NCBI GenBank assembly: GCA_029945665.1
Contig: JAQSCZ010000125.1
Coordinates: 67 to 64,066, forward strand
Source of the DNA: a bacterium
GTDB taxonomy: Bacteria; Bacteroidota; Bacteroidia; NS11-12g; UBA955
Direction: 5' to 3'
Length of the DNA stretch: 64,000 nt
Part shown: positions 652 to 50,610 of the stretch, piece by piece
Layout: each line of letters opens with the position of its first letter
Numbering within the stretch: position 1 is the first letter of the stretch
Notes under the pieces: model-generated
What the model saw: the letters and a program-made list of their open reading frames with translations, nothing else
The model's database searches: none
What the model was told of the DNA's origin: nothing
Made by a program: the position numbers and the translations under genes

Positions 652-3108
652 TTAAAAAGGGCACACCATTTTCAAACAAAAGTTTCGCCCCATGTTATAC
701 ATCCCACTTCGATTATTGGCTGATTTATTAAAATATTCGAAATACTTGAGCCGATTGAGGTTAGATTGAAATGCCTTATCGAAGACATTATTAACTTGAA
801 ATTGCAGTTGAAGTATTTGCAATTTATTGTATTTTATTTCAGTTGAAATTCCAACATTAAGGAGGAAAAAACTTGCGGTGGATGTTTCAGTATTGTTCAA
901 CCCCAAAAACTTAGTTTGAGCGGCACTAAATTCCGTTTCCATTTTTGGAGTTACTGACTTGAAAATTTTTGAATGAATATTTACTTTTTGAGAGATGCTA
1001 CTCAATAATTTCAGGGGTGGAATTAAGGGCAAGTATTCGCCGTTTATGCCTTCACCACTGTATTGCGATTTTCGATTAAAACCATATACCATTGAAAAAC
1101 TATGATCGAATAAAAAACCTTTTAAAGCAACTGGATGAATAGATAACCATGCTTCCATTCCATATAATTGTGCTGATGCTTGTTGGTATTGATACGTTTT
1201 ATTTCCTTGCCCGTCGGTCATTGGTTTTTGATTTTCATCAACCATTAATTTTAAATAAATGTAATTATTGATATGGTTGTTAAACAAACTTAACTCGGCG
1301 GAAATATTTTTAAATTTTGCACTTGCACCAAGGTCTTGTTGAAATGAAAATTCAGGATTAAAATTTCGATTGCCCAAATAAATAATATGGGCACCTGGGT
1401 CAAGTCCGTTGGATGCTATTTCTGTAATATTTGGGGCTCTATAGCCTCTACCTAAATTACCTTTAACAGCAATCTGTTTGGTTATTTGATAGGTGGCTCC
1501 TAGGCTTGCCGAAAGCCCGCCAAAATTCTTTCTATACCGTGGGTATTGCAATTTTGCATTCCCAGTGTCATTTATATTTACTTGTCGATCGAAACCCGTC
1601 AGGACATTATTTTTAACATAAAAGTCTTCTATTTTAATTTGCCGAATATCATTGCGAATGCCCCCACTAATCGTCCATTTAGAATATTTCCATTTGCCAT
1701 AGAAATAAATACCGCCATCGAATAAACTGTAATTTGGAATTGGAAAATCAGTAGCATCATTGTTTTTATTGTTTTGTAACATCCCATTGCATCCGATGCT
1801 CGTTTCAATGTTGTGAAATTTTGGGGCGTTATAACGAAAACCATAATTCAGTGTATTGAGTCGCACCGACATACCTGCCTGATTTGGCATGGTGGGATGG
1901 TTATATTCTTTTCTAATATTTTGTTGAAAAGCAAACAGCATATCCAAGTCCCCTTTTCTTAAGTTATAAGAACTATGCATATAAGCCCGGTAATGCTTAA
2001 TTTGTTGGTGTAATGGCGACAGTTGGTAAGCATTTAATTCTTTGTCTGAAACCAACTGACGGTTTTTAATATCATCATTTGCACCTTCAAAGATTTGTTT
2101 TGTGAATCGCCTGGAAAGTGAGTCGCGGCTGCCATCTGGAATACCTTGCAGATTGTCATAAAGGGTTAAATTAAAATGAGAGAAACCTTTGCTTGTCTTG
2201 TAACCAAAAAGGAAAGATAAATTTTTTTCATCAAAGCCAGTATTGTATACGCGACCATCTATCGAATTGCGATAATTTTTCGCCACACGATAGGATCCTC
2301 GGGCGGCAAATAGAAAATGTTTATTGCTATACCCTAAACGCAAACCGTTTCCAAATAAATTATTGTTAGATTGATATTCTGATGTGAATTTTCCTGTTAA
2401 TTTCCCATCTTCTAAGCTGGGTATATAGGGAAACAAACTTACGACCCCTGCCAGAGCATCCGACCCGTACATTAAACTTGCTGGCCCTTTAATTACCTCT
2501 GCATTGTTAATATTATAGGCATCCACTTCAATACCATGTTCGTCGCCCCACTGCTGACCCTCCTGTCTTACGCCGTCATACAATGTCAGCACGCGGTTAT
2601 AGCCAAGTCCTCGGATAAAAGGCTTTGAAATATTTGGACCCGTTTTAACGGCATTTAACCCAGGCACATTTTTCACCAAGGCATCGATAATGTTACTTTC
2701 AGTTGCCTGCTCAATGGCCTTTAGAGGAACGCTCACAATTGAAACAGGATTTTCTTTTATAAGTGTCGCTTTAGAAACGCCAGTTACCACAAACTGACTA
2801 AATGCCAATTGCTTTGGTCTTAAAAAGATTATTATATCATGCACTCTCCTATTTAAAATTTGCGTGTCCGACTCATAACCAATATTTGAGATAATCAGTT
2901 TGGTGGTGTGAGAGAGGTTCGCAAAATCTATTTTAAACTTTCCATTTTTGTCAGTTTGTGTTCTATTTCTTGAATCATTTAAATAAATAATACAATTTTC
3001 CAAAGGAAGCAATGTACTCGAATCATTAACGACACCTGTAATGGTTTGACTTTGTGCATGTGTGACGATGCTCAAAATAAAACAAACTAAAATTAAAAGG
3101 AATTTCAT
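652..3108 (-). CDS. TonB-dependent outer-membrane receptor with CarboxypepD_reg-like N-terminal domain
   Basis: 818-aa ORF with ATG start and a signal peptide. It has an N-terminal 'ITGVVNDSSTLLPLENCIIYL' carboxypeptidase-regulatory-like fold, a plug region (FIRGLGYNRV), and a long beta-barrel ending in an aromatic F. Confidence 0.9.
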   Translation of the reverse strand: MKFLLILVCFILSIVTHAQSQTITGVVNDSSTLLPLENCIIYLNDSRNRTQTDKNGKFKIDFANLSHTTKLIISNIGYESDTQILNRRVHDIIIFLRPKQLAFSQFVVTGVSKATLIKENPVSIVSVPLKAIEQATESNIIDALVKNVPGLNAVKTGPNISKPFIRGLGYNRVLTLYDGVRQEGQQWGDEHGIEVDAYNINNAEVIKGPASLMYGSDALAGVVSLFPYIPSLEDGKLTGKFTSEYQSNNNLFGNGLRLGYSNKHFLFAARGSYRVAKNYRNSIDGRVYNTGFDEKNLSFLFGYKTSKGFSHFNLTLYDNLQGIPDGSRDSLSRRFTKQIFEGANDDIKNRQLVSDKELNAYQLSPLHQQIKHYRAYMHSSYNLRKGDLDMLFAFQQNIRKEYNHPTMPNQAGMSVRLNTLNYGFRYNAPKFHNIETSIGCNGMLQNNKNNDATDFPIPNYSLFDGGIYFYGKWKYSKWTISGGIRNDIRQIKIEDFYVKNNVLTGFDRQVNINDTGNAKLQYPRYRKNFGGLSASLGATYQITKQIAVKGNLGRGYRAPNITEIASNGLDPGAHIIYLGNRNFNPEFSFQQDLGASAKFKNISAELSLFNNHINNYIYLKLMVDENQKPMTDGQGNKTYQYQQASAQLYGMEAWLSIHPVALKGFLFDHSFSMVYGFNRKSQYSGEGINGEYLPLIPPLKLLSSISQKVNIHSKIFKSVTPKMETEFSAAQTKFLGLNNTETSTASFFLLNVGISTEIKYNKLQILQLQFQVNNVFDKAFQSNLNRLKYFEYFNKSANNRSGMYNMGRNFCLKMVCPF

Positions 3109-5736: not shown

Positions 5737-6666
5737 ATGCAACTAATTACCAATTGCCCTGTTTGTAACGCTACAACGCTCAGTTCTTTTATTACAACAA
5801 CAGCACAAATGCATGCGAATAAAGCCTTGTTTAATTTTGACCAATGTGCAAATTGCAAACTCGTTTTCTTAAACCCCAGAGTGCCTATAGAAGAGCTAAA
5901 AAATTACTATACTTCATATTACTTGCCTTATAGAGGAGCAAAAGCTTGGGGTAAGTTTGAAAAATTGGTGGAGAACAGTCAAAGACAATTAGATTTAAAA
6001 AGAGTGAATCGTGTAAAAGCTGAATATGCCATGGTCTCAGATGCTCTAATTCTAGACGTGGGTTGTGGTAAACCCAGTTTTTTAAAAGCATGTAAGCAAA
6101 CGCTAAATTGCAGAACCCTGGGTATCGACTTCACTGACGAGGGTTGGCATAATCAATCAACCGATTTCGATGGGCTCGATTTAAAAGTAGCAGAGATAAA
6201 AGATTTGTCAAGTAACTTGCAACCAGATGTCATTACCATGTGGCATTATTTAGAACATGATTATACACCTTTTGAAAATCTTAGTTTTCTAAAAACCATT
6301 GCAAAACCTTCTACTAAACTTATTATCGAAATACCCAATTTCAACTCAGAAAGCAGACGGAAATATGGCAAGCATTGGGCAGGATGGCATACACCACGCC
6401 ATACGTCATTGTTCTCGCCCCATAATATTGAATTACTACTTAATAAAAGTGGCTGGAAAGTTACCAAATTACTCACCTATGGAACCATGGATCCCTATTT
6501 GCTTTATTGGATGAGCGAGATGGAAATAAAAGGCATTCAGTGGGATAAAAATATGGAAAGTGAATTTTGGAAATTTCTTCTAGGAAAGCTCCTATTCATA
6601 CCAAAGCAATTGATGGAGAAACAATCGTCTCTTGGCATTATGACAGTTATTGCAACACCGCAATAA
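5737..6666 (+). CDS. Class I SAM-dependent methyltransferase with N-terminal Cys4 zinc-ribbon
   Basis: 309 aa. CPVC...CANC ribbon, then SAM motif I 'ILDVGCGKPSF' and 'VITMWHYLEH'. Confidence 0.75.
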   Translation: MQLITNCPVCNATTLSSFITTTAQMHANKALFNFDQCANCKLVFLNPRVPIEELKNYYTSYYLPYRGAKAWGKFEKLVENSQRQLDLKRVNRVKAEYAMVSDALILDVGCGKPSFLKACKQTLNCRTLGIDFTDEGWHNQSTDFDGLDLKVAEIKDLSSNLQPDVITMWHYLEHDYTPFENLSFLKTIAKPSTKLIIEIPNFNSESRRKYGKHWAGWHTPRHTSLFSPHNIELLLNKSGWKVTKLLTYGTMDPYLLYWMSEMEIKGIQWDKNMESEFWKFLLGKLLFIPKQLMEKQSSLGIMTVIATPQ

Positions 6667-6672
6667 CACGCT

Positions 6673-7374
6673 TTAAAAATTCAAAAGATTTTTACCTTCC
6701 CAAGTCCCAGTTGATTTGTATGGTTGAAATCTTGCAAATAGCTCTTCTTTATACCAATTGTTTTTTCGAGTTCTTCTAATGGCTTCTTGATGTTGCTTGC
6801 TTTTATAAGCAAACTGCTTCACTGACTCAAAATCTTTCCATAAACTAAAAGTCGCCATTTGAACAATTGGAACTTCACCTACTCCTTTGGTATAAATCAA
6901 TCCTGCGTTCCCTTCCAAGGCTTCCTCTGATGTTGGCACATAATTCCAAAATCGCAAGAGCCAATTCCACTTAATAGTAGCTCTTGTAATAATGGCAATT
7001 GGGGCACTAGGATCCAAATCGGCTCCTTTCTCAAAAGGATTTTTACCAATCCATGCGCCACTTGCTGAAATGCTTTTCATATAAAGTGTAAATAACTCTT
7101 CAGTATGTAAAGCATATTGCTTTATCAAATCTGAACCGGTGAAAAATTCTTGTGCAGCGTTTTCAGATTCCCAAACCTGAAGAAGGCAATAAATAGACCA
7201 GTCAGGCAAAGGATTAAACCCTCTTCCTTTTCCACTACCCATCAATCGATAAAATGTCAGACCTTTTACATCTGCTAAATCTTTTTTGGCAAACTGCATC
7301 ATTTTAAATCCCCATACCTTATTGCTTAAAGTTGCAAACTTAAAAAAAGAAAGTGTTGTGATTTGTTGACTCAT
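6673..7374 (-). CDS. CrtA-like protein (spheroidene-monooxygenase / carotenoid 2-hydroxylase family), putative
   Basis: 233 aa. The N-terminal pattern 'LSFFKF..L..KVWGF..M......L.....GL.FY.LMGSG.G.GF.P.PDW..Y..L.VW' matches my memory of the CrtA family. It lies in the same strand array as the rhodopsin and crtY-blh. Confidence 0.5.
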   Translation of the reverse strand: MSQQITTLSFFKFATLSNKVWGFKMMQFAKKDLADVKGLTFYRLMGSGKGRGFNPLPDWSIYCLLQVWESENAAQEFFTGSDLIKQYALHTEELFTLYMKSISASGAWIGKNPFEKGADLDPSAPIAIITRATIKWNWLLRFWNYVPTSEEALEGNAGLIYTKGVGEVPIVQMATFSLWKDFESVKQFAYKSKQHQEAIRRTRKNNWYKEELFARFQPYKSTGTWEGKNLLNF

Positions 7375-7613
7375 ATTTTAAGGGATCTAATTTTATCTTT
7401 CAGAGAATACCTGCTGGCGGAAATCCTTTAGATTATCTAATAACACCAAATAGCTTCAGTTGTTTTTCGATATTTGTAAATGTAAGACATTATAAGCAGA
7501 ATGAATAAATACATAAAATAAAATCATTCCATACGACCACTACCCTATTGTTTATTCGAAAATTTAAGAACTCCATGATTGCTTATGGCATTTCAATAAA
7601 AAAATAGCATTGA

Positions 7614-9629
7614 TTACGATCGGTGAAACATTGCATAGAATTGATGCATTTTTAAAACATGGGGGATACTTAAACAAGATAAAACTATAAAAAAAAGACC
7701 CGCTGCCTGCTGACCTGCAAAAAACAAAGCGTACAAAATAATCATTGCACCTCCGATGCTAAATGGCAACGACTTTTTCCACAAAGTTGATGACCGTTCA
7801 TTTAACCCTGTTGAAAGGTGACGCCAACCATGCATACTGTGTTGGCCAACAAAATAAATACCGAACGAAATAAGCAAAGGCAACATGCTTGAAAGCAATA
7901 AATAGATTAATGTTAAAAGCATGTATTTTGATTTATTTAAAACGGATAACAAGATGCCCAATCCAAGTGTTAGAATTTGAATAAATAGTATTTGCCCCTC
8001 AGATATTTTTTTAAGAACAATGGCAATTTGCAAGTTTGGGATTTGTTTTAAAATATCTGATAATTCTACAAAATGAAAACTTAGTATCGTCATTAAAACC
8101 GTAAATCCCCAAAAAAACGATGACAAGCCTTGGATTAAATTCCATTCCTTAAAATCAGCCTGACCAAAATGCCACATGGAATAGGCCATAAAAATCAGCA
8201 AGGCAACGTCTGGGAATAAATACCAAATGAATCCCAAAAGCACGCCTTTCAATACATAATTTAACATAAAATAAAAAAGTTGCTTATGGTTTTTTACTTT
8301 CCGTGACGTTAAGTGATCCAACGCACCATGAGCAAGACCCACGGTCAAAAAACCCACAACCAAAATGCTTCCAGCGATGTATTCAAAATTTAAAACCGAG
8401 AGAAAAACCGCTAAAATTGTAAATAAAAAAGGGTAAAACAATAATGGCAAACGAATACATCTTTGAAGGACATCTTTTACCACAGCTTTAATGAAAATTC
8501 GCTTTGGTAATTTTGAAAAAATAACTATTTCTTTTGTAATGCTCGTTTTTTCGCGAAGAAAACTTAAAACCTTTATTAAGGCCACTTTCTTAAACAAGGT
8601 TTCGAAAATTATTTTCCCATATTCAGGTTTATCTGTTAAAATTTTAAGCAACAAACGGTCATAAAATCCAAATCTTTTTTTTCTGATAATTCTTTTCTGC
8701 AATTGATTATTTTTAATGGCCTCCATTTGTACAATCGCATCTTCGGCCATCGCATGAAAAGCATAACCTGTTGTGCATTTTAGCATATCTGCTTTGACAC
8801 CCATATTTACCCAATGTGAACCATAGTGATCTTTTTCCATGTTGGCACTTGACATTGGAATTACCCCTTGTTCAGTTTCAATAATTTCAAATGAAACGCC
8901 TAGTGCTTTCGAATACTCATCTAATATCAATTCTGCTTCTGATTTTAATAATTTTTGAGTACCAAATCTGGTTAGTTCTATCAATGCTGTATCTTCGGTA
9001 AAGGGCAGTGTATATACAAATTGGGTAAAATTATTTTGAGGGACATTAAAATCCATCATCACCATTGTAGAAGTGTCAAATGTTTTTTTGTCTGTTTTAA
9101 TTTTCCAACCAAAAAAGGACTGATTTAAATGAGTTTGATTGTTTTTTGGCTTTAAAAATACCGGTGGCCGACTATCGAAAACATACTTAGCGCGTAGTGT
9201 TTCATTTTCTAATTTTAATTCAAATTGCTCAGCCTTTACATCAGGAATTCCAGTAAAGAAGGTTGCAAAATTTGTCACCTGACAATTCAAAAGACAACTT
9301 TTAGCCGCGTGGTATAAATCGATTCCTTTCACATGGAAATAATGCAATGGATTAATTGGCTGTTTGGCAATGCCGCTTATTTCTATATTCGACCAGCTAT
9401 AACTTACAAGTGTATTTAATTTTAGTTTAAAAAGTTCTTGTTCTGTCGCCCAAAAACAAAAAGTCCTATCGTTGGTCGTTTTACCATCTGGCTCAATAAT
9501 AGCAATGGTCTTACCATTTAGTAAACCATTTTCGTGCAACATTAAAATCAACAAGCAATTCGCTGCACCTAATCCAATGAATAGGAAATCAAATTTCAAA
9601 GTTGAATTATATTTTTCGGTTGATTGCAT
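7614..9629 (-). CDS. crtY-blh: Fusion protein: lycopene beta-cyclase (CrtY-type, N-terminal) + Brp/Blh beta-carotene 15,15'-dioxygenase (C-terminal)
   Basis: One uninterrupted ORF. The track start at 9653 is TTG; the ATG at 9629 is preferred. The N-terminal half has the FAD fold 'FDFLFIGLGAANC', 'DRTFCFW' and 'FVYTLPF..LIE.TRF'. The C-terminal roughly 280 aa is polytopic, with Blh-type His motifs 'HGALDH', 'WHFGQAD' and 'QHSMHGWRH'. Confidence 0.85.
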   Translation of the reverse strand: MQSTEKYNSTLKFDFLFIGLGAANCLLILMLHENGLLNGKTIAIIEPDGKTTNDRTFCFWATEQELFKLKLNTLVSYSWSNIEISGIAKQPINPLHYFHVKGIDLYHAAKSCLLNCQVTNFATFFTGIPDVKAEQFELKLENETLRAKYVFDSRPPVFLKPKNNQTHLNQSFFGWKIKTDKKTFDTSTMVMMDFNVPQNNFTQFVYTLPFTEDTALIELTRFGTQKLLKSEAELILDEYSKALGVSFEIIETEQGVIPMSSANMEKDHYGSHWVNMGVKADMLKCTTGYAFHAMAEDAIVQMEAIKNNQLQKRIIRKKRFGFYDRLLLKILTDKPEYGKIIFETLFKKVALIKVLSFLREKTSITKEIVIFSKLPKRIFIKAVVKDVLQRCIRLPLLFYPFLFTILAVFLSVLNFEYIAGSILVVGFLTVGLAHGALDHLTSRKVKNHKQLFYFMLNYVLKGVLLGFIWYLFPDVALLIFMAYSMWHFGQADFKEWNLIQGLSSFFWGFTVLMTILSFHFVELSDILKQIPNLQIAIVLKKISEGQILFIQILTLGLGILLSVLNKSKYMLLTLIYLLLSSMLPLLISFGIYFVGQHSMHGWRHLSTGLNERSSTLWKKSLPFSIGGAMIILYALFFAGQQAAGLFFIVLSCLSIPHVLKMHQFYAMFHRS

Positions 9630-9709
9630 TTTTAAGGTTATAAATGAATACAATAAAAAAGGGATGGCACCTTTTAAAGTTTGCCACCCCTATCATATTT
9701 TTAAATAAA

Positions 9710-10429
9710 TTAATCTTGAGAATTTCTGCTCAAAGCATAAATTACTAAACCGAATCCGATTTTGTTTACAGCATCGGCAATGTTGTATACAATATCCATA
9801 GCATGACTTGCAGCTGCAGAATCACTTACCAATTGGATACCGAATAATCCACCTGGTGTTCCTAAAATATAACCCAATGGATAAATAGCCCATCCTACTA
9901 ATACGAACCAAGCAAGAATGCGCGTTGCCTTTGCAACTTGTGGTCCCGCTGTTTGTGCTAATTTAGCAACATCACCAAACCAAACAAGGTAAGCAATGTA
10001 GAAGTAAGCCGCTCCAGAAATCACACCCCATAACACACTGCTATCTCTGTCGATTGTTTCGCCAAAATAACCAGTTACTAACATCACCAAAGATGCAAAA
10101 ATCAATTTCCATAACAATCCAATTTTAGCACCTGCTTTTTTGGTTATTAAGTAAAATTCTACGCACATCAAAGGCACTGTTAAGATCCAATCAACGTAAC
10201 GGAAAAAAGTTGGAGAATCACCTGTTTCTAAATTGTAGCCCCTCATGTAATAATAGTGAACCGCTGCAATGAATGTAATTAATCCCGATACAAGAACTGA
10301 TGTTCTCCATTTAGCGGAGGTATTATTCAGTTCAAAAAAGAAAAATACCGAAGCAGCCATCATGGCCATGGTGCCGATGAAGAATGTAAAAGCAACGTAA
10401 TTGTCGCTTGCGATTTTTAAATGTTCCAT
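9710..10429 (-). CDS. Proteorhodopsin-family light-driven proton pump (DTE motif, Met at spectral-tuning site)
   Basis: 239 aa, 7 TM. Helix C 'RYVDWILTVPLMCVEFY' gives D80/T84/E91, equivalent to PR D97/T101/E108. H58 corresponds to PR H75. Helix G 'NIADAVNKIGFG' carries D219 and the Schiff-base K223. Confidence 0.95.
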   Translation of the reverse strand: MEHLKIASDNYVAFTFFIGTMAMMAASVFFFFELNNTSAKWRTSVLVSGLITFIAAVHYYYMRGYNLETGDSPTFFRYVDWILTVPLMCVEFYLITKKAGAKIGLLWKLIFASLVMLVTGYFGETIDRDSSVLWGVISGAAYFYIAYLVWFGDVAKLAQTAGPQVAKATRILAWFVLVGWAIYPLGYILGTPGGLFGIQLVSDSAAASHAMDIVYNIADAVNKIGFGLVIYALSRNSQD

Positions 10430-10677
10430 TTTTTTTTAAATTTGATTTAAGTTTGTAAATATTTTATTCAATTTAAGTTAAACAAAATATTATTTAAAAA
10501 TGTTTTCATTTGTTTAAGTATAAAACAAAGGCACTAGCTGATAAAATTCTATACTCCTAACTTGTCTTTTAAAATACAAAGCAGTGTATAGTAAATGTTT
10601 AAATAATTTACCACAAAGACAAATCCTCTGTCAACTAGAACAAATTAACCATGGATTTAGGTGATGAAAAAGAATTT

Positions 10678-11424
10678 TTACGCCTTGGTTATAAACTGTT
10701 TACGAATTTTATTGGGCATCTTCACCTGAACCTCAGATCCTTTTGCAAGAAAAACAGAAATGGGTTTAACATTTTGAATAAAGGGCGTAAAAGCCTCCCC
10801 ATATAATTTCTCGATATCGCAAATAAGCGCAGATTTTATAACCGGAAAAACTTGCCAACGCGGATGTGCAAGACTATATTCTATTGAAGTCGTTTCATTC
10901 AACTTGTTGTAACCATAATAATGCTCAAAAATAAATTCTTCTTCAGAACCAGGTTCAATATATTGGCCATTTGGATTAGCACTGACCGTCATTTTACACC
11001 AATCCGTATCTTTTGTTTTCCATTGATAGGACACATCTAAAATTTGACTATTATGAGTAATCGCATGACTCATTTTAGCCGTGCTATAATGCTCATTGTA
11101 TAATAAGTTTGCGATACTTGACACCAAGAAGCTTGGAACTATTTCAGAGATAAACCCTACACCTCGCTTCCATTCCCTTCCATCAAAATATTTGATATAG
11201 TATCGCAAGTTAACTTCTTCGAAATTTACAAAGCCTGGCCATTTTACCCCCATTACTTGTGTATTGTTAAATAGGAATCCTACAACGCTTACAATGGCCT
11301 TACCTTTCCATAAATCCAATTGGGTATAAGGAGGCAAGTGCGGCAACAAGATTAATGGATCAACTTCGAAATTAAACATTGCGAGGTATTCCCATTTGGC
11401 CCTTAAAAATATATGCTTACCCAA
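10678..11424 (-). CDS. DUF2071 (YqjF-like) family protein
   Basis: Conserved N-terminus 'AKWEYLAMFNFEVDP'. The track start at 11469 is TTG and an ATG lies at 11463; both overlap the upstream gene by 38-44 nt. A TTG at 11424 sits 1 nt after the upstream stop and keeps the conserved N-terminus, so I prefer it. The start is uncertain. Confidence 0.7.
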   Translation of the reverse strand: MGKHIFLRAKWEYLAMFNFEVDPLILLPHLPPYTQLDLWKGKAIVSVVGFLFNNTQVMGVKWPGFVNFEEVNLRYYIKYFDGREWKRGVGFISEIVPSFLVSSIANLLYNEHYSTAKMSHAITHNSQILDVSYQWKTKDTDWCKMTVSANPNGQYIEPGSEEEFIFEHYYGYNKLNETTSIEYSLAHPRWQVFPVIKSALICDIEKLYGEAFTPFIQNVKPISVFLAKGSEVQVKMPNKIRKQFITKA

Positions 11425-11425
11425 G

Positions 11426-12061
11426 TTACTTGATAATTTGTGTTGGCTTCCCAGGTTTGGCATATTCAAAGCGATCTATAAAATCGGTATTATAATAAGC
11501 ATCAATCCCATTGCTGCAGATCGAATTTGCTTTCTCTAAATGAATAAATCCATCATCCGAGACAATGTCTTGATGTATAATTATACCAGTAATCTTTCCA
11601 ATAACTAAAAAAGTTCTATTTAACTGAATTGGAATTATTTCTTCAAGCGACAATGCATATTTAATATCGCTCTCTCTAACAAATGGCGCAATACAATTCA
11701 ATTCAAACTCAGGTGTTAATCCAACTTCTTCAAACTCACTAATTTCTTTTGAATATTTTGCACTGGTTTGATGGGCTTGTTGAACAAACTGCGATTGAAT
11801 GTGATTGATCGTGTAAACACCAGTGGACTGAATATTCTCTAGGGTGTGTGCCGCTGATTCTATCGGCCTGTTGATGTAACCGATTAAAGGCGGATTTGAG
11901 CCAAGGTGAACAATGCTGCTAAAAATACCGAGGTTATTTTGACCATTGGCGTTGGTTGTTCCAATTAGACTTACAGACTTAAATCCTGTTAAACTATTTA
12001 TAAAATTTGCGCGGTAGAAACGCTCCCACCTATCCATGTCCTCGGTATTATAAAATGCCAT
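11426..12061 (-). CDS. Flavin reductase-like (FMN-binding split-barrel) protein
   Basis: 211 aa. 'FKSVSLIGTTNANGQNNLGIFSSIVHLGSNPPLIG' is typical of Flavin_Reduct domains. ATG start. Confidence 0.8.
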   Translation of the reverse strand: MAFYNTEDMDRWERFYRANFINSLTGFKSVSLIGTTNANGQNNLGIFSSIVHLGSNPPLIGYINRPIESAAHTLENIQSTGVYTINHIQSQFVQQAHQTSAKYSKEISEFEEVGLTPEFELNCIAPFVRESDIKYALSLEEIIPIQLNRTFLVIGKITGIIIHQDIVSDDGFIHLEKANSICSNGIDAYYNTDFIDRFEYAKPGKPTQIIK

Positions 12062-12114
12062 ACTGTTATATTAATAATTCAAACATTACTAAGCGCAAAT
12101 TGTTTAAGATTTCT

Positions 12115-13590
12115 ATGAATGAAGCTGTATTGATTTTTCCGCATCAGTTGTTTCAACAACATCCTGCTTTGCAAAAAAATAGGCCGGTGTTTTTGGTAGA
12201 AGAATGGCTTTTCTTTCGACAATACCATTTTCATACACATAAACTCATACTGCACAGAGCAAGTATGAAATTTTATGAAGCTTATTTAAACGAACAAAAT
12301 TATACTGTTAACTACATCGATTCTAATGATGAAAAAAATGATATTACCGTATTAATTTCATTTCTGAACGAAAATAAAATTACAAAAATTCATTTGGCAG
12401 ATGTTGTTGATGATTGGTTATCGCAGCGTATCCACAATGCGTGCTTAAAATATGGCATTGCTATCAGTATTAGTGGTTCGCCATCTTTTTTAAATACCAT
12501 GGAAGCAAACAATAGGTATTTTAATAACAAGCAGACCTACTTTCAAACCGATTTTTATATTTATCAGAGAAAGGAACTTCAATTGTTATTAGAAGCCAAT
12601 GGTAAACCAGTTGGCGGCAAATGGACCTTCGATTCAGAAAACAGAATGAAGTTTCCAAAAAAAGAAACAGCGCCCTCAGTTCATTTTCCACCAACCAATC
12701 CATATTTAACAGAAGCTGTTGAATATGTAGACCAATATTTTCCCTCTAATTATGGAGATGCACATGCTCCTCATTTTTTCGCAACTACCTTTATAGAAGC
12801 AGAAAACTGTTTGAATGATTTTCTAAAAAATAGATTTGAAAAATTTGGTATTTATGAGGATGCCATAGTTGCCAATGAAAACATTTTGCACCATTCTGTT
12901 CTTTCACCTATGTTGAACATAGGAATATTAACGCCATTACAAATACTAGAGGCCGTATTAATGCATGCTAGCATTAACAAGACACCACTCAATTCGCTAG
13001 AAGGCTTTATTCGACAAATTGTTGGTTGGCGAGAATTTATAAGAATCGTATACGAACGCGAAGGAAAAAAACAAAGAACCACTAATTACTTTAAATTCAA
13101 ACGAAAGATTCCGCGTAGTTTTTGGACAGGCACAACTGGCATAGCTCCTATAGATATTACAATTCAGAAAACACTTAAGACCGGATATTGCCATCACATT
13201 GAACGTCTCATGGTACTAGGTAATTTCATGTTACTATGTGAGTTCGACCCTGACGAAGTTCATCGCTGGTTTATGGAATTATTTATTGATGCCTATGACT
13301 GGGTGATGGTGCCTAATGTATATGGCATGACACAGTTTGCAGATGGCGGATTAATGACCACAAAACCCTATATAAGCGGCAGCAATTATTTAATGAAAAT
13401 GAGTAATTATGAAAAAGGTGAATGGCAGCCAATTTGGGATGGATTATTCTGGCGCTTTATGCATGAGCACCGCAGCTTTTTTTTAAAAAATCCAAGACTT
13501 GGTATGTTGGTTCACACATTCGACAAAATGAGTGACGAAAAAAGAAATTGCCATTTGATCAATGCAGAAAACTACCTAAACACTCTGTAA
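12115..13590 (+). CDS. Cryptochrome/photolyase-family protein, COG3046 / PhrB-CryB-related branch
   Basis: Start re-set to the ATG at 12115 (MNEAVLIFPHQLF), because the track start at 12007 overlaps the divergent flavin reductase. Shows 'GWREFIR', 'TGYCHHIERLMVLGNF', 'DAYDWVMVPNVYGMTQFADGG' and 'KPYISGSNY'. Confidence 0.85.
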   Translation: MNEAVLIFPHQLFQQHPALQKNRPVFLVEEWLFFRQYHFHTHKLILHRASMKFYEAYLNEQNYTVNYIDSNDEKNDITVLISFLNENKITKIHLADVVDDWLSQRIHNACLKYGIAISISGSPSFLNTMEANNRYFNNKQTYFQTDFYIYQRKELQLLLEANGKPVGGKWTFDSENRMKFPKKETAPSVHFPPTNPYLTEAVEYVDQYFPSNYGDAHAPHFFATTFIEAENCLNDFLKNRFEKFGIYEDAIVANENILHHSVLSPMLNIGILTPLQILEAVLMHASINKTPLNSLEGFIRQIVGWREFIRIVYEREGKKQRTTNYFKFKRKIPRSFWTGTTGIAPIDITIQKTLKTGYCHHIERLMVLGNFMLLCEFDPDEVHRWFMELFIDAYDWVMVPNVYGMTQFADGGLMTTKPYISGSNYLMKMSNYEKGEWQPIWDGLFWRFMHEHRSFFLKNPRLGMLVHTFDKMSDEKRNCHLINAENYLNTL

Positions 13591-13624
13591 AATACAATTC
13601 TAAATAATTGAATATTCACCTTAA

Positions 13625-13783
13625 ATGAAACCTATAAAAAAAGAAAACTTAGCTTCAAAAATTTGCATAGTATGCCAAAGACCGTTTACTTGGAGAAAGA
13701 AATGGGAAAAGGTATGGCATGAGGTGAAATATTGTAGTGACAAGTGCCGAATAAGCAAAAAAAAGATTGAGACTATTTCATGA
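13625..13783 (+). CDS. DUF2256-type small zinc-ribbon protein (52 aa), missed by the ORF track
   Basis: My translation is MKPIKKENLASKICIVCQRPFTWRKKWEKVWHEVKYCSDKCRISKKKIETIS. It has the CxxC...W..V.YCS..C signature. Its TGA overlaps the ATG of the next photolyase gene (ATGA at 13780-13783). Confidence 0.8.
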   Translation: MKPIKKENLASKICIVCQRPFTWRKKWEKVWHEVKYCSDKCRISKKKIETIS

Positions 13784-15282
13784 CGCAATCGGTTAATATC
13801 ATCTGGTTCAAACGCGACCTTCGACTTGCGGATCACAAGCCCCTTCAATTGGCCATTGCAGAGGGCTTGCCTACTGTTTTGTTGTATTGTTTCGAACCAT
13901 CGCTGCTAAATCATGGTGATAGTTCCGAAAGACATTGGCGATTTATTTATCAATCCCTTCAACAAATGCAAAAGGTTTTAAGAACTTACAATTTATCCAT
14001 TCAAATTGCATACTCAGAGGTCATCGACGCATTACAAACAATACAAAATCACTGCAACATAAAAACTATTTTTTCGCACCAAGAAATAGGCAATCAAATA
14101 AGTTTCAAACGAGACAAAGCTGTTAAATTATTTTGCAATAACAATAACATCCAATGGATTGAATCGACTACCAATGGCATAACAAGAGGATTAAAAGGCA
14201 GAAAAGACTTTAGTAAGCATTGGCATGCAGTAATGAACGAACCTCTATTTGAAATTGATTTAAACAAGTTGCAAATATTTAACATGGGTTCAATACTAAG
14301 CAATGTTAGTGAAAATGAAATTTTTTACAATAGCATCACTTCAAAACATTCTTATATACAGCCAGGCGGGGAACAATATGCCCATGAATATATGAAGAGT
14401 TTTTTAAGCCAAAGGGTCGCTAATTATAGCAAGCATATTAGCAAACCTATGGAAAGTAGAAAAAGTTGTAGCCGACTTTCGCCATACCTTGCTTGGGGCA
14501 ACTTAAGCATCAAACAAATTTATCAAACCTCTTTAAAATCATTTGTACAAAATAAAGATAAATTCAACATCAATTTTTTTATTAATAGGCTGCATTGGCA
14601 TTGTCATTTTATTCAGAAGTTCGAAAGCGACTGCTCCATTGAATATAAAAATCTGAACAATGGTTTTGATGAGATTAGAAATAGTAAAAATGAAGCTTAT
14701 ATTACAGCTTGGGAAAAAGGGGAAACAGGTTACCCTTTGGTTGATGCCTGTATGAAGTGCGTAATAGAAACGGGTTATTTAAATTTCAGAATGCGAAGTA
14801 TGCTTGTTACTTTTCTTACCCATCAACTTTGGCAACCCTGGCAGGCGGGAGCTCACCATTTAGCCAAACAATTTTTAGATTATGAGCCAGGCATTCATTA
14901 TCCGCAATTTCAAATGCAGGCAGGCACCATGGGCGTAAATACTATTCGCACTTACAATCCCATAAAACAATCAAAAGACCACGATCCACAAGGTGTATTT
15001 ATTAAAAAATGGATTCCTGCATTGCAACATATTCCAGAAAACATAATTCACGAACCGTGGGTTATGTCAGAAATGGAACAAAAGATGTATAAGTGCATCA
15101 TTGGTTCAGATTATGCCGCACCAATTATTGATTCTAAAACAGCCGCTGCTTTTGCCAGGGTCCACTTATGGGAAACAAAAAAATCAAAAAATGTATTAAA
15201 AAACAATGCAAAAATTTTAGCCATTCATACCAACCGAAAAAATAAAGAAGATGATAACACTTTACAGATTAATTTTAGTTAA
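13780..15282 (+). CDS. Cryptochrome/photolyase-family flavoprotein, canonical N-to-C topology, divergent subclass
   Basis: 500 aa. N-terminal 'IIWFKRDLRLADHKPL'; FAD domain 'SRLSPYLAWGNLS' and 'TGYPLVDACM..ETGYLNFRMRSM'. The usual D.D..SN..WQW block reads 'LDYEPGIHYPQFQMQAG'. Confidence 0.85.
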   Translation: MTQSVNIIWFKRDLRLADHKPLQLAIAEGLPTVLLYCFEPSLLNHGDSSERHWRFIYQSLQQMQKVLRTYNLSIQIAYSEVIDALQTIQNHCNIKTIFSHQEIGNQISFKRDKAVKLFCNNNNIQWIESTTNGITRGLKGRKDFSKHWHAVMNEPLFEIDLNKLQIFNMGSILSNVSENEIFYNSITSKHSYIQPGGEQYAHEYMKSFLSQRVANYSKHISKPMESRKSCSRLSPYLAWGNLSIKQIYQTSLKSFVQNKDKFNINFFINRLHWHCHFIQKFESDCSIEYKNLNNGFDEIRNSKNEAYITAWEKGETGYPLVDACMKCVIETGYLNFRMRSMLVTFLTHQLWQPWQAGAHHLAKQFLDYEPGIHYPQFQMQAGTMGVNTIRTYNPIKQSKDHDPQGVFIKKWIPALQHIPENIIHEPWVMSEMEQKMYKCIIGSDYAAPIIDSKTAAAFARVHLWETKKSKNVLKNNAKILAIHTNRKNKEDDNTLQINFS

Positions 15283-15379
15283 GACTTGCTTAACCTTTTA
15301 GATTAAAATGTATAAATAGTTAAGTAGTTTAAAGCGAAGCAATTTTTGACAACTAAAAAAGAATAAAAAAATAAAAACA

Positions 15380-15661
15380 ATGACCCCAGATAATTTAAGT
15401 GAAATAGATATTGACCGCATTATTGAAATGGCTTGGGAAGACAGAACGACTTTCGAGGCCATAGAAAAGCAATTTGGGTTGAAACAAGAAGATGTAATCA
15501 AACTGATGCGCAAAACGCTCAAGCGCTCTAGTTTTAAATTGTGGCGCGAGCGCACTAAAGGCCGCAACACCAAACACGAGGCGCTAAGAGACAATGCCAT
15601 TACACGTTTTAAATGCAAACTCCAGCGCACCATTACTAATAATAAAATAAGTAAGCGCTAA
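15380..15661 (+). CDS. TIGR03643/DUF2805-like small protein (photolyase-associated)
   Basis: 93 aa. The 'IDRIIEMAWEDRTTFEAIEKQFGL...VIKLMR..L....FK.WRER' pattern matches my memory of this family. Its stop lies 1 nt before the next photolyase gene. Confidence 0.7.
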   Translation: MTPDNLSEIDIDRIIEMAWEDRTTFEAIEKQFGLKQEDVIKLMRKTLKRSSFKLWRERTKGRNTKHEALRDNAITRFKCKLQRTITNNKISKR

Positions 15662-15662
15662 T

Positions 15663-16817
15663 ATGACTTTAGATTTAATTACCGAAAAAAATCCAAGTTC
15701 AAACTATTCCTTTCCAACCAATCAAAAGTTTATTGCGGAAAGGATTAATCAAATAGACCCCATTCTATATGGCAAGACCAGAAATTTTATCGACGGCTCG
15801 GTTACCTATTTATCACCCTATATTTCCAGAGGCGTTATTAGTGGAAAACAGATTCTGGAAAATATTTTGCAAAAAGGATATCGACCAAATGAGATAGAAA
15901 AATTCATACAAGAACTTGCATGGCGAGAATATTTTCAGCGTATTTGGCAAAATATACAGGATGGCATTTGGGATGATATAAAACAAGCACAACCCGATGT
16001 AAAGCATACTCAAATGGTTGAATCGGTAATAAATGCTAACACAGGCGTATCAGCCATTGACGATGCTATTGAACAATTATACGCAAATGGATACATGCAT
16101 AACCACTTGCGCATGTATACAGCATCGATGGTATGCAATATGGCCAAAGCGCATTGGTTACAGCCCTCTCAATGGATGTATTACCATTTGCTGGATGGCG
16201 ACATAGCGAGCAACAATTGCAGTTGGCAATGGGTAGCCGCAGCATTTGCATCCAAGAAATATTATTTCAACCAAGAAAATATCAATAAATATACGTTTAG
16301 CACCCAAAAAAATAGCTACTTGGACAGGCCTTACGAGGAAATTATGGCGATGGAAGTGCCAGAACCATTGCGTGCGAAAAGTAATTTGAGTTTACAAACT
16401 ACATTGCCATATACTGAATTACCTAGTATCAACCCATCAATTCCAACACTCATATACAACAGTTATAATTTGGATATTGAGTGGCACAAGGATGAGCAGG
16501 TGAATAGAATTTTGTTGTTAGAACCTTCGCACTTTAAAAAATATCCTGTGAGCAAAAAAGTTCTTGCGTTCATCATTGATCTTGCAAAAAATATAGAGGG
16601 GATAAAACTTTTCTGTGGTGAAATTAATGAAATTATTGATTCAAATGCCCAATCAAATATTGCCATTTCAAACATCATATCAAAAGAACACCCATCAAGT
16701 AATCATTATCCTGGAATAAAGGAAAGCAGAGACTGGATGTTCCCAGAAATCACAGGAAATTATCCTTCTTTTTTTGCGTATTGGAAAAAATGCGCTAAGC
16801 AACTTGGAATAAAATAG
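15663..16817 (+). CDS. Inverted-topology photolyase (NewPHL-like): FAD/catalytic domain first, small alpha/beta-like domain last
   Basis: 384 aa. It starts directly with helical-domain motifs 'SVTYLSPYISRGVIS', 'ELAWREYF', 'NGYMHNHLRMY' and 'LLDGDIASNNCSWQWVA'. There is no N-terminal WFRRDLR domain. The C-terminal roughly 125 aa ('RILLLEPSHFKKYPVSKKVLAFIIDL...YPSFFAYWKK') resembles the photolyase alpha/beta domain and linker. Confidence 0.75.
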   Translation: MTLDLITEKNPSSNYSFPTNQKFIAERINQIDPILYGKTRNFIDGSVTYLSPYISRGVISGKQILENILQKGYRPNEIEKFIQELAWREYFQRIWQNIQDGIWDDIKQAQPDVKHTQMVESVINANTGVSAIDDAIEQLYANGYMHNHLRMYTASMVCNMAKAHWLQPSQWMYYHLLDGDIASNNCSWQWVAAAFASKKYYFNQENINKYTFSTQKNSYLDRPYEEIMAMEVPEPLRAKSNLSLQTTLPYTELPSINPSIPTLIYNSYNLDIEWHKDEQVNRILLLEPSHFKKYPVSKKVLAFIIDLAKNIEGIKLFCGEINEIIDSNAQSNIAISNIISKEHPSSNHYPGIKESRDWMFPEITGNYPSFFAYWKKCAKQLGIK

Positions 16818-17035
16818 TACATTAAAAATTACTTGCATTTTTATTTACTGTATTAATAACTAAGAATTATCCGGTACTGAGCTATAATTTTTTGGGTTTA
16901 ATTGAGTCTAATATTAATTTAGAATATATATACCTCCTGCTATCACTGACAATACAATTAGTTTTTAAATTTAAAACAATTTCATAGTATAAATTCCCAA
17001 AATTTAGCCATCTAAAACATTTTTTGTTCTTGTGT

Positions 17036-17920
17036 TTAGTAGTCGGAAATGCTACTATTATTATATAAATTATGGATATGCAAAATTAAATAGCCAAAGA
17101 GAACAGCACCCAAAATCAAAGCATTGTTAACCACACCTTCCACAGAAAAAGACAACTTTATTAAAATTGTAGAGATGACAAAGCCAGAGTTCCGAATAAT
17201 CTTATGAAATTTATCAGAGTAAAAAAAAGAGAACAAAAGCAATATCACATCTATGACAATTAAAACCATGAAGAAATCTTCGAAAAAGATATTATTAATA
17301 TTTTTAAAAGAGGTTATATTGTTCCAATGGTCTTGCACGGCGGAGATTAACCAAATACCGAAAGAGTAAAAGGCAAGGACTACTAAAAAAGGGATCAACA
17401 CGGTGGCAATGCTTTTTTTAAGTTTTATAAACTTAGTTGTTTTAAATTTTTCCCCTAGCGATTTAGGAGTTTCTTCGACCCCTTGCTTCTTTATTTTCTT
17501 ATAAAACAATTGAATTAAAAAAAACAAAATTAAGGTTGTTAATACATCGTAGGTAAACTGGAGATCATTTTCTAACCTAAACCAATTGGTGGTCATTTCG
17601 ATATTGCCAATATCTTTAAAAATCCGCCTGATAACAATCAATGTTATAATTTCGTATTGCTTGCCTATGTATATTGAAATGGACCGAGGCAAAAAAAATA
17701 CAAGTAAGAACACTTCATAAACTAGAATAAAAGAAAATGGCGTATACACTGCCGAAATAGGGCTTTTTGTAAGTTTTGAAGAAATATGTAATACATCTTG
17801 ACTTACTAAAAAAATAACAAGTAAATGCACAATGAAACTCACAATAGCTATAGAAATAATGACATGTTCTATGCGTTCTCTGAATTCTTCAGACAAGAAT
17901 TTATCAAAAACATTTTTCAT
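17036..17920 (-). CDS. Polytopic membrane protein, function unknown
   Basis: 294-aa ORF with ATG start and about 7 hydrophobic segments. I recognise no family. Confidence 0.55.
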   Translation of the reverse strand: MKNVFDKFLSEEFRERIEHVIISIAIVSFIVHLLVIFLVSQDVLHISSKLTKSPISAVYTPFSFILVYEVFLLVFFLPRSISIYIGKQYEIITLIVIRRIFKDIGNIEMTTNWFRLENDLQFTYDVLTTLILFFLIQLFYKKIKKQGVEETPKSLGEKFKTTKFIKLKKSIATVLIPFLVVLAFYSFGIWLISAVQDHWNNITSFKNINNIFFEDFFMVLIVIDVILLLFSFFYSDKFHKIIRNSGFVISTILIKLSFSVEGVVNNALILGAVLFGYLILHIHNLYNNSSISDY

Positions 17921-18288
17921 TAGCTCCGCAATTATTTGAAGGCATTAGTAAAGTTAACCAAATTGAAAGTCTTATTGTTTTGAGAATTAGAAAAAAGGGA
18001 CACAAAATCCTAAGATATAGTAAATTGAATTTTGCATTAGAACACTATTAAAAAAAGCTTTGCAAATGTTTTGACTGTTCATTTTTTATGGAGTCGACTT
18101 TGAACTATCTTAATTTTAACACAAATAGATTCTATCTATTCTATTATAGCTTATGGCACACCCAAATTCTATTAGTTTTACAAGAAACCAGCTTTTAAAA
18201 GAAAATCACAAACGTTAAACAAACACAACCTTATTCCATCACTTCGTAAAAGCTTCAACTTATTTAGATATACTTTTTGTATTTCTTT

Positions 18289-18804
18289 TTAAAAACTAAG
18301 CATCATTTGATAGTTTGGATTTGAATGATTTTCAGTAATTTTAAAATCATAGTTTCCAATGATTTTGAAACCAATTTTTTTATAAAAATTAACGGCTCTG
18401 TGATTTTCTTTCCAAACAAATAACCACATAGCAAATTGGTTGCTTTGCTTGGCTATTTTAATATTAAAATTAATAAGTTCAAGGCCCAATTTCAAATCGA
18501 AAATCTCCTTGAGCAAATAAATCCGGTCGAGCTTGGTTACATTTTTATATTGAATATCGGAATGTTCAGCGTTCAATACAATTTTAGAAAATCCAGAAGG
18601 TTGCTTATTGCAATATAGAATATGATAAATGTTACTGGAATTTTTGAGTTCTTCTTGAATGCTTAAATTATTATAATTACGCTCAATAAATGCATTCATA
18701 TCTTCCACAGAACAACTTTCCTTATGAGCTTCTGCTACCGAAATTTTACCAATCTTTACAATTGCCTTATAGTCTATCTCAGTGGCTTTTACAATTGAAA
18801 TCAT
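18289..18804 (-). CDS. GNAT-family N-acetyltransferase
   Basis: Start re-set to the ATG at 18804 (MISIVKATEIDY); the track start at 18864 is TTG. Acetyl-CoA motif region 'NHRAVNFYKKIGFKIIG'. Confidence 0.8.
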   Translation of the reverse strand: MISIVKATEIDYKAIVKIGKISVAEAHKESCSVEDMNAFIERNYNNLSIQEELKNSSNIYHILYCNKQPSGFSKIVLNAEHSDIQYKNVTKLDRIYLLKEIFDLKLGLELINFNIKIAKQSNQFAMWLFVWKENHRAVNFYKKIGFKIIGNYDFKITENHSNPNYQMMLSF

Positions 18805-18918
18805 AGAATGAGTGATTGAAAATAGTTGTTTATTATAAACGCAAATATAACGACAATCCTGCAAGTACTATCGCAATCATTAAGGTTAGAAAAATCCAGC
18901 ATATTGATTGTTTTACTG

Positions 18919-18965
18919 TTTCAAACTTGCTTTCACAAAGCAAGGCATTAATTTGCAAATAAAAA
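18919..18965. repeat. Direct repeat copy A (pairs with 25954-26000)
   Basis: TTTCAAACTTGCTTTCACAAAGCAAGGCATTAAT... About 42 of 50 positions are identical to copy B, including a 23-nt perfect run. It contains the 8-bp inverted repeat CTTGCTTT-cac-AAAGCAAG. Confidence 0.8.
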
Positions 18966-19023
18966 CAGATGTCCAATGTATTGAAAATATCCGCAAGTTG
19001 AATTTAGTTTGTATTAATTACAA

Positions 19024-21321: not shown

Positions 21322-21324
21322 TAT

Positions 21325-23811: not shown

Positions 23812-23835
23812 TTTAATTTTATATTTTTAAATTAT

Positions 23836-23861
23836 AAGGATAGCCTTTTACAGCTATCCTT
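23836..23861. terminator. Stem-loop AAGGATAGC-8nt-GCTATCCTT with flanking T/A runs, between the DUF3347 gene and copA
   Basis: 9-bp perfect stem located 7 nt downstream of the 23868 stop and 25 nt upstream of the copA start. Confidence 0.5.
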
Positions 23862-23867
23862 TTTTAA

Positions 23868-24731
23868 TTATTTAATGGTCTCTACTGTTTTACCACAAGT
23901 AAGCATTTGAGCACCGAAATACGGATTTTTAATTGCGTTTTCTTTACTCAACCAATTGGCGCCTTTGCCATCATTTGCCATTGGACAATGCTGATAATAC
24001 ACGGATTGTTCATATTTTGCAACCTTCATCAGGGTGTAAATATTGTCAGATAACCGTATAAAATGTTCTCTTTGATGTGATGCATCCTTCGTATTGGCCA
24101 TGTGCTCGGCATCTTCTTGCAAATCAGTCAATACTTTCATCCAAACTAGGTGTACATCCATAGAAAGCTTATCCATCTTTACGGCCTTGATAGCCGACAA
24201 AAGAGCTGTCGATTTTGCGGATGCCAATGCACCATCTGTTTTCACCAGCGCATCTTTAACTTCAAAATACTTATCAAATATGTTATTTAACTGATTTGAT
24301 TCCTCAATTTCCAAAGATGATTTTTGAATTGCTTGATTGGCTGTATCCATTTTCATTTTGGGCGCTTCTGTTTTAGCAATTGTCTTTTTTGTTCTATCGT
24401 ATTGACAGCAATTTGGAAGATTTGAGTAGGCTAAATCTGGCGACAAAAAGCTATCGCTGTCATAGCCTGCCAAAGCTATACGCTTTAAAATTTCGGCAGA
24501 ATTGGTTTGTTTAGTATCGAAAGTAAGGGTAGCCATTTTGGTATCTATATTCCATTCCACAAGTGACACTTTTTTTACGTTACCCGCCTTTTCTATGGCC
24601 TTTTTGCACATTCCGCAATTTCCATAGATTTTAATTGTATCTGTTTTGGCATTTTTAATTTGTGCATTGCACGCTGTGATTGATAGCATAATTGTTAATG
24701 CTATCAAAATTTTTGATGTTATTTTTTTCAT
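23868..24731 (-). CDS. Lipoprotein with HMA-like CxxC domain and DUF3347-like C-terminal domain (metal-handling accessory)
   Basis: 287 aa with a lipobox (SITAC). 'YGNCGMCKKAIEKA' is HMA-like. The C-terminal 'FDKYFEVKDALV...HCPMANDGKGANWLS' matches my memory of DUF3347. Confidence 0.7.
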   Translation of the reverse strand: MKKITSKILIALTIMLSITACNAQIKNAKTDTIKIYGNCGMCKKAIEKAGNVKKVSLVEWNIDTKMATLTFDTKQTNSAEILKRIALAGYDSDSFLSPDLAYSNLPNCCQYDRTKKTIAKTEAPKMKMDTANQAIQKSSLEIEESNQLNNIFDKYFEVKDALVKTDGALASAKSTALLSAIKAVKMDKLSMDVHLVWMKVLTDLQEDAEHMANTKDASHQREHFIRLSDNIYTLMKVAKYEQSVYYQHCPMANDGKGANWLSKENAIKNPYFGAQMLTCGKTVETIK

Positions 24732-49597: not shown

Positions 49598-50139
49598 AAT
49601 AGCAGACTACAAATCTAATTGTTTGCGTAAAAAAATTTCAAAAAGGATATACACAAAAGCGACTTAAAATTATTGCTAGCTAATCTTTAATAAATATGCA
49701 TCCAATTGGAGCAAAACACCCTCCTATTTTAACCTAGTGAAAAATTAAAAAAGTATTTTTACTCAGTGCCCAAAAATCAACTTGAATTCGTCCAAAAAGC
49801 GCGAAAACAGGACCAAAGTACAAAACGCAACATAATTTATAGTGCTGAATTACTGCAATTTACACGCAAATTTCAGATTAAAACTAGACTTAATTTGCAA
49901 ATTAGAGATTGCGATATATGTTTGTGTATGAGGTGTTCGAAAAGGTAAGTATTTTTACTCATTAAGCATTTATACTCAGCAATTTAGCACTCATTCAAAA
50001 ACAGAAAAAACCAAAATAAAATACATAAACGAAACAGAATTAAAAAACTAAAAACAAATCCTAAAACTAAAAAAAACTAAAACTATTGAAAACACATTTT
50101 TACTTGAAAATTAATAACTAGACAAATAAATTAAATTGC

Positions 50140-50574: not shown

Positions 50575-50610
50575 AAAAAAACCCCGAGAATTTCAGTTTC
50601 GGGGTTTTTT
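50575..50610. terminator. Rho-independent terminator downstream of ruvA (bidirectional shape)
   Basis: AAAAAACCCCGA-11nt-TCGGGGTTTTTT, lying 16 nt from the ruvA stop. Confidence 0.8.

Follow-up and report, generated by a model that had tools for sequence, protein, structure and literature searches.

A proteorhodopsin gene in a freshwater Bacteroidota genome carries the fenestration glycine of carotenoid-antenna rhodopsins and lies next to a CrtY-Blh fusion gene

We analysed a 64,000-nucleotide stretch of DNA (hereafter the window; positions 67 to 64,066 of contig JAQSCZ010000125.1, assembly GCA_029945665.1) from a bacterium of the Bacteroidota lineage NS11-12g, UBA955, with a focus on its rhodopsin gene. 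The product of this gene matched the Pfam family Bac_rhodopsin (PF01036, E 3.8e-42). It is followed by a single open reading frame (ORF) in which a lycopene cyclase, CrtY, is fused to Blh, and then by a CrtA-like gene (Table 1). An earlier reading of the DNA letters, referred to here as the original prediction, had described the rhodopsin as a proteorhodopsin-clade pump carrying the xanthorhodopsin-type glycine that opens a fenestration for a carotenoid antenna. The glycine is real, and the protein is probably a green-absorbing, light-driven outward proton pump with a xanthophyll antenna at G135 and with retinal supplied through the CrtY-Blh fusion. The finding is correct and also ordinary, as the same glycine is the published norm for Bacteroidota proteorhodopsins.

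Table 1. Features of the rhodopsin locus; positions are those of the window.
Feature	Position	Strand	Basis or remark
Proteorhodopsin gene, 239 residues, seven transmembrane helices, no signal peptide	9710..10429	-	ORF, Pfam, PDB match, model
G135 codon (GGT), helix E fenestration glycine; equivalent to xanthorhodopsin G156 and bacteriorhodopsin W138	10025..10027	-	Alignments
Helix C pump motif D80/T84/M88/E91: predicted proton acceptor, Thr, spectral-tuning Met (site 105 of green-absorbing proteorhodopsin), predicted proton donor	10157..10192	-	
K223 codon, retinal Schiff-base lysine; equivalent to bacteriorhodopsin K216	9761..9763	-	Alignment
Helix F end Y187-I188-L189-G190-T191-P192, predicted floor of the carotenoid ring pocket	9854..9871	-	Alignment and published residue table
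F-G loop, residues 193-210, GGLFGIQLVSDSAAASHA	9800..9853	-	7 residues longer than in NM-R1; clade-specific
CrtY (N-terminal)-Blh (C-terminal) fusion, one ORF of 679 residues	7614..9653	-	56 bases downstream of the rhodopsin gene, same strand
CrtA-like gene, 233 residues	6673..7374	-	After a 239-base gap beyond the CrtY-Blh fusion

Positions 6380-23386 of the window were 100% identical to an independently assembled public contig (Logan SRR23006903_707), so the rhodopsin locus is not an assembly artefact. Positions 48626-53216 were 99.94% identical to assembly GCA_038205575.1. An exact-sequence look-up of the rhodopsin and four neighbouring genes returned no match, but RuvA and a DUF2805 protein near the rhodopsin had exact-sequence matches, which led to GCA_038205575.1 and the Logan contig. 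A simple scan for sigma-70 promoters and terminators, which does not extend to Bacteroidota promoters, found nothing above shuffled expectation.

Translation of the rhodopsin ORF confirmed every residue named in the original prediction (H58, D80, T84, M88, E91, G135, D219, and K223). In alignments, K223 and D219, the counter-ion aspartate four residues before the lysine, corresponded to K216 and D212 of bacteriorhodopsin (BR). D80, T84, and E91 fell at BR positions 85, 89, and 96, forming the Asp-Thr-Glu (DTE) pump motif, and H58 fell at His75 of the green-absorbing proteorhodopsin (GPR) of SAR86. MAFFT aligned M88 with GPR L105 (chain index L89), the tuning site to which the methionine had been assigned. 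The start codon of the ORF is the first to follow an in-frame stop, and helix A begins at around residue 11, which leaves no room for a signal peptide, in line with the earlier description. GPR does have a signal peptide.

The protein is a member of the proteorhodopsin clade and not of the xanthorhodopsin (XR) family, as judged by its higher scores to NM-R1 and GPR than to XR, Gloeobacter rhodopsin (GR), and BR. In a sequence search of the PDB, the top match was NM-R1 of Nonlabens marinus S1-08 (9JOV and the zeaxanthin-bound 9JOU; E 8.6e-89, 300 bits). GPR gave E 6e-51 and 176 bits, with green and blue proteorhodopsins all at about 1e-50, whereas the values were E 8e-27 and 98 bits for GR, E 6e-24 and 88 bits for XR, and E ~5e-12 and 49 bits for BR. 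XR, GR, and Kin4B8 fall in another clade (28-31% identity, 83-98 bits), and their long B-C insertion is absent from our protein. The AlphaFold2 model (predicted local distance difference test score, pLDDT, 85.6; predicted template modelling score, pTM, 0.82) contained seven transmembrane helices and short extra helical segments, with helix E formed by residues 128-150. When the whole fold of this model was compared with the PDB by Foldseek, the top structure was again 9JOU (template modelling (TM) scores 0.88/0.91, root-mean-square deviation 1.9 Å). GPR (7B03) gave TM scores of 0.82/0.90, and XR, GR, and Kin4B8 ranked far lower at 28-29% identity.

We then placed the glycine in a proper alignment. 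The XR and BR reference sequences were 100% matches to PDB 3DDL and 1O0A, and those of Kin4B8, GR, thermophilic rhodopsin, psXR, NM-R1, and GPR were taken from PDB alignments. In the MAFFT alignment, G135 shared one column with XR G156, Kin4B8 G153, GR G178, NM-R1 G142, and BR W138. Profile-profile comparison by hhalign, with 45 clade members on one side and an XR-family alignment on the other, also equated G135 with XR G156 (99.9% probability). Both methods thus agree with the by-eye placement of Gly135 opposite BR Trp138, and it is a glycine, not a bulky residue, that occupies the XR G156 position when XR, GR, and GPR are aligned. The string SVLWGVISGAAYFYIAYLVWFG begins at residue 131 of the translated rhodopsin. 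The gapless helix E alignment to BR drawn earlier paired strings of 22 and 21 letters; it holds when the leading S is dropped, and its listed identities are right.

In a set of 57 full-length sequences, made up of the query, six references, and 50 cluster representatives (clustered at 50% identity), the fenestration column held 30 Phe, 20 Gly, 3 Trp, 2 Leu, and 2 Tyr. Since glycine is common in this column as a lineage trait, whether it occurs more often than by chance is not the real question. The GPR residue was ambiguous in the small MAFFT alignment (Pro, with a 2-residue insert), but the larger alignment gave Phe, in agreement with both the original prediction and the published assignment (Chazan et al., bioRxiv 10.1101/2022.08.24.505090). 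GPR (7B03, 2L6X) belongs to the same clade as our protein (42-43% identity) and likewise has the DTE motif, the histidine, and, at site 105, a residue of the green type. It differs in its Phe at the fenestration, in binding no carotenoid, and in having Leu rather than Met at site 105.

Rhodopsins with this glycine are known to use carotenoid antennas. Two Gly-bearing proteins, EinA29G6 of an uncultured freshwater flavobacterium and KR1 of Dokdonia, bind xanthophylls (zeaxanthin and lutein) with 35-40% energy transfer to retinal, and TsPR from Tenacibaculum binds the zeaxanthin of its own host and transfers energy (Chazan et al., bioRxiv 10.1101/2022.08.24.505090). In the same study, the G153F substitution abolished carotenoid binding in Kin4B8, with the Phe-bearing GPR as the contrast case; about 43% of environmental proteorhodopsins were estimated to be Gly-bearing, and zeaxanthin was included among the dominant carotenoids of Bacteroidota. 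Almost all Bacteroidota proteorhodopsins combine Met at site 105, their green-absorbing residue, with Gly at the XR-156 position (Fujiwara et al. 2024, bioRxiv 10.1101/2024.11.08.622755). Because this is a published rule, the antenna-type glycine found here is not novel. The suggestion of an antenna-capable proteorhodopsin is itself well supported by homology to NM-R1 and by Y187 and T191, whereas the novelty that it implied did not stand.

NM-R1 provides the nearest solved structure for our protein (62% identity by BLASTP, with a numbering offset of +7 up to the F-G loop). In its cryo-electron microscopy structures, myxol or zeaxanthin lies in the fenestration and touches Y194, which corresponds to our Y187, and the carotenoid ring is immobilised by W139, W201, and Y202 (Fujiwara et al. 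2024). The two proteins have in common Met105, the lack of a signal peptide, and, in NM-R1 numbering, D87/T91/E98 (DTE), H65, G142, Y194, and T198-P199. NM-R1 is marine, whereas our protein is from freshwater. Apart from the three ring residues considered below, L143 and M195, which also surround the β-ring of the carotenoid in NM-R1, are replaced by V136 and I188. The single BLASTP gap consists of 7 residues in the F-G loop, which is longer in our protein, and there is none around helix E.

Four positions of Kin4B8, 204, 205, 208, and 209, are relevant to the antenna. Their residues are Y-A-S-Y in Kin4B8, Y-M-M-A in XR, Y-L-M-L in GR, Y-M-T-D in KR1, and Y-I-T-E in EinA29G6; Y204 is conserved in all known carotenoid-binding rhodopsins, and the S208A substitution lowers zeaxanthin binding to 2% in Kin4B8 (PMC12308411). 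The aligned residues of our protein were Y187-I188-T191-P192, and those of NM-R1 were Y-M-T-P. The conserved helix F tyrosine (XR Y207) is therefore present as Y187. The polar residue at Kin4B8 Ser208, typical of the 3-hydroxy xanthophyll subclass, is T191, and it is likewise Thr in KR1, EinA29G6, and NM-R1. The pocket floor, Thr-Pro, is thus polar as in 3-hydroxy-xanthophyll binders, whereas the floors of XR (Met-Ala) and GR (Met-Leu), which use 4-keto carotenoids, are hydrophobic. This polar floor makes a keto-carotenoid antenna less likely than a hydroxy-xanthophyll. Like our protein, EinA29G6, KR1 (from Dokdonia eikasta), and TsPR are from Bacteroidota and have Gly at XR-156, the conserved Tyr, and Thr at Kin4B8 position 208; position 209 is Pro in ours but Glu (EinA29G6) or Asp (KR1) in the tested proteins. 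XR (3DDL), GR (6NWD), and Kin4B8 (8I2Z/7YTB) share with our protein the LWG/WG context of the glycine, the conserved Tyr, the DTE motif, and the His.

The segment from Y187 to D219 spans 32 residues; most relatives have 20-25, and XR, the F-G loop of which is similar in length to ours, has 29. It exceeded the segment of every reference and equalled the longest found among intact rhodopsin representatives. The core of the loop, GGLFG.QLV, was conserved in the clade (139 close relatives). This long F-G loop is the sole mildly distinctive feature of the protein.

The clade to which the rhodopsin belongs is large. At least 7,999 relatives were found in protein databases (E < 1e-10), and the best 120 were all 89-95% identical. 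Among species-representative genomes, at least 590 matched stretches were confirmed as relatives; all counts of related loci given here refer to the best 80 of these 590 (L001-L080). Nearly all of the 80 loci were from freshwater metagenome-assembled genomes (MAGs) labelled Bacteroidota (Chitinophagaceae, Ferruginibacter, Flavobacteriales, Crocinitomicaceae, and Saprospiraceae). Several contigs that carry this Bacteroidota-type rhodopsin with CrtY-Blh or Blh (L004, L012, L020, and L066) were found in MAGs labelled Methylotenera, Synechococcus, Bifidobacterium, or Polynucleobacter; these labels are likely binning or labelling errors and not real hosts.

Within the clade, G135, M88, E91, Y187, D219, and K223 were invariant in all 139 close relatives, D80, T84, and T191 were each kept in 138, and the pocket residues Y187-P192 were invariant or nearly so. 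The rhodopsin protein was 87-96% identical across MAGs of different Bacteroidota families, and the adjacent CrtY-Blh was 30-64% identical. Recent horizontal transfer was considered as the cause of the high rhodopsin identity and rejected: against 49 related rhodopsin genes, first and second codon positions were 90% and 96.5% identical, but third positions only 51%. Such divergent third positions together with a near-invariant protein point to strong purifying selection. One relative, P0138 (89.5% identity), carries the pocket signature Y-I-T-E, which is also that of EinA29G6. This suggests that EinA29G6 may belong to the same clade as our protein. EinA29G6 was compared by its four published pocket residues, and its entry (GenBank UJI09384) was not among the cluster members of ten close relatives.

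The fusion ORF downstream of the rhodopsin matched Pfam Lycopene_cycl (1.7e-42) and BCD (2.8e-29) as well as TIGR03753 (blh; 1.9e-35, above cut-off). An independent gene call gave 671 residues, again with both CrtY and Blh domains. Of the 80 related loci, 57 had the lycopene cyclase part after the rhodopsin gene, and CrtY and Blh formed a single open frame in 51 of the 54 loci where both parts were seen. Judging from these domains, the module can make retinal from lycopene. No paper describing a CrtY-Blh fusion in nature came up in phrase searches of the literature.

A CrtA-like gene two genes away from the rhodopsin had also been predicted, and the ORF at this place matched NCBIfam NF045923 (spheroidene monooxygenase CrtA) over its full length (7.9e-69, positions 2-226 of 226), with 231.5 bits against an equivalog cut-off of 300 bits. 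CrtA of purple bacteria makes a 2-keto group. The Bacteroidota homologue is CrtA-OH, a carotenoid 2-hydroxylase that acts on the open end of myxol precursors and is not a ring ketolase, and the ORF probably encodes an enzyme of this type. A CrtA-like gene was near the rhodopsin in just 1 of the 80 related loci (L059). The adjacency is therefore not a conserved functional link, and we rejected the gene as a conserved partner of the rhodopsin. A gene for an S-adenosylmethionine-dependent methyltransferase (Methyltransf_23; 5737-6666, plus strand) adjoins the CrtA-like gene with convergent ends, and the same pair recurs in L059 (2963-4626). The two may form a carotenoid-modifying unit. The 64 kb window contains the CrtA-OH-like gene and the CrtY domain; neither a crtW nor a crtO ketolase was found in it.

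From these observations, we propose how the protein may work. Retinal would be bound at K223, D80 would take the Schiff-base proton, and E91 would return it, with M88 setting green absorption. The CrtY-Blh fusion would cyclise lycopene to β-carotene and then cleave β-carotene to retinal. G135 in helix E would open a lateral window onto the β-ionone ring of retinal, and the hydroxylated β-ring of a xanthophyll would dock there, as homology to NM-R1, KR1, EinA29G6, and Kin4B8 suggests. With Y187 as its support and a hydrogen bond near T191, the carotenoid would run across helices E and F and transfer blue-violet excitation to retinal, widening the action spectrum. Zeaxanthin, environmental lutein, and a myxol-type carotenoid formed with the help of the CrtA-OH-like enzyme are the candidate antennas.

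Several observations weigh against such an antenna. Glycine at the XR-156 position is necessary for carotenoid binding but is not known to be sufficient. Three ring-holding residues of NM-R1, W139, W201, and Y202, are replaced here by V132, G194, and L195, and the 7-residue insertion follows G193-G194, at the very place where NM-R1 clamps the ring with W201 and Y202. This loop was also modelled at lower confidence (pLDDT ~68-77), the lowest apart from the termini. In addition, neither crtZ nor the backbone genes crtB and crtI were found in the 64 kb window. The protein might then work in vivo as a pump with retinal alone, its glycine passed down from the ancestor of the clade or retained for the packing of the helices, either with a remodelled pocket that has no ring clamp or in a host that has no suitable xanthophyll; earlier loading of native rhodopsins with pre-defined carotenoids did fail (Chazan et al.). 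We regard this as unlikely, since all Gly-bearing Bacteroidota proteorhodopsins tested (KR1, EinA29G6, TsPR, and NM-R1) bind xanthophylls, and Kin4B8 binds its carotenoid despite having L150, not Trp, at the Trp139 equivalent. The Y-I-T-E signature of the freshwater EinA29G6 recurs in P0138, close to the Y-I-T-P of our protein, and the strong constraint on G135, Y187, and T191 and the dominance of zeaxanthin in Bacteroidota also argue against a retinal-only pump.

If the antenna were instead an XR-type 4-keto carotenoid (echinenone, canthaxanthin, or a salinixanthin-like compound), the glycine and conserved tyrosine common to XR, GR, and our protein would be accounted for, and the 2-keto group formed by purple-bacterial CrtA could be cited in its favour. 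The Thr-Pro floor, however, matches that of the hydroxy-xanthophyll binder NM-R1 and not those of XR or GR, and KR1 does not bind canthaxanthin (PMC12308411). Given also that the Bacteroidota CrtA homologue is a 2-hydroxylase and that the window holds no crtW or crtO, a keto antenna seems highly improbable. Several relatives of ~90% identity carry Joint Genome Institute (JGI) labels of 'sensory rhodopsin', which would fit a sensor or, more broadly, a pump for another ion. These labels are automatic, and the full DTE motif with His58 is the pattern of proton-pumping proteorhodopsins. The closest characterised relatives pump protons, and the gene is flanked by the retinal-synthesis fusion and a DUF2071 gene, with no transducer; we give a sensory role or another ion almost no credence. 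Within the preferred reading of a proton pump with a xanthophyll antenna, the antenna site of the freshwater clade might be remodelled, with the F-G loop in place of the Trp-Tyr clamp and Val for Trp139. It would then hold a different carotenoid, or hold it in a different pose, with a transfer efficiency different from that of the solved marine proteorhodopsins. This is a quite doubtful idea, for which a myxol-type or 2-hydroxylated xanthophyll made through the neighbouring CrtA-OH-like enzyme would be the candidate ligand.

Upstream of the rhodopsin lies a cluster of light-related genes (10678-16817). The encoded proteins are three members of the photolyase/cryptochrome family (a photolyase-related DPRP protein, a class I-type photolyase, and a cryptochrome-like FAD_binding_7 protein), a flavin reductase, a DUF2071 protein, and a small DUF2805 protein. 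Parts of this set recurred near the rhodopsin in ~14 of the 80 related loci. A copper-handling cluster (19024-24731, minus strand) encodes a multicopper oxidase (765 residues), a heavy-metal P-type ATPase with HMA and HMBD domains (828 residues), and a DUF3347 protein. A protein of the TspO/MBR family, called CrtK in the carotenoid clusters of purple bacteria, is encoded at 25383-25862 (minus strand), ~15 kb from the rhodopsin; no link between the two is evident. Rfam detected no RNA family in the window. ARAGORN called a tRNA-Pyl (anticodon CTA) at 2714-2807 (minus strand), inside a TonB-dependent receptor ORF (652-3108); as Rfam placed no tRNA there, the call is probably a false positive. 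The remaining genes of the window are ordinary chromosomal ones.

Antenna proteorhodopsins widen the spectrum of light harvested by abundant aquatic heterotrophs, which bears on estimates of rhodopsin phototrophy in both lakes and oceans. This role was established between 2022 and 2025 for the very group to which our protein belongs. The locus described here is one more, very typical freshwater example, and its value lies in representing a huge and highly conserved freshwater clade. The pocket of this clade shows differences of detail from the marine structure that has been solved, and retinal would be supplied by a compact CrtY-Blh fusion. The point of experimental interest is the effect that the clade-specific F-G loop may have on the choice or pose of the carotenoid.

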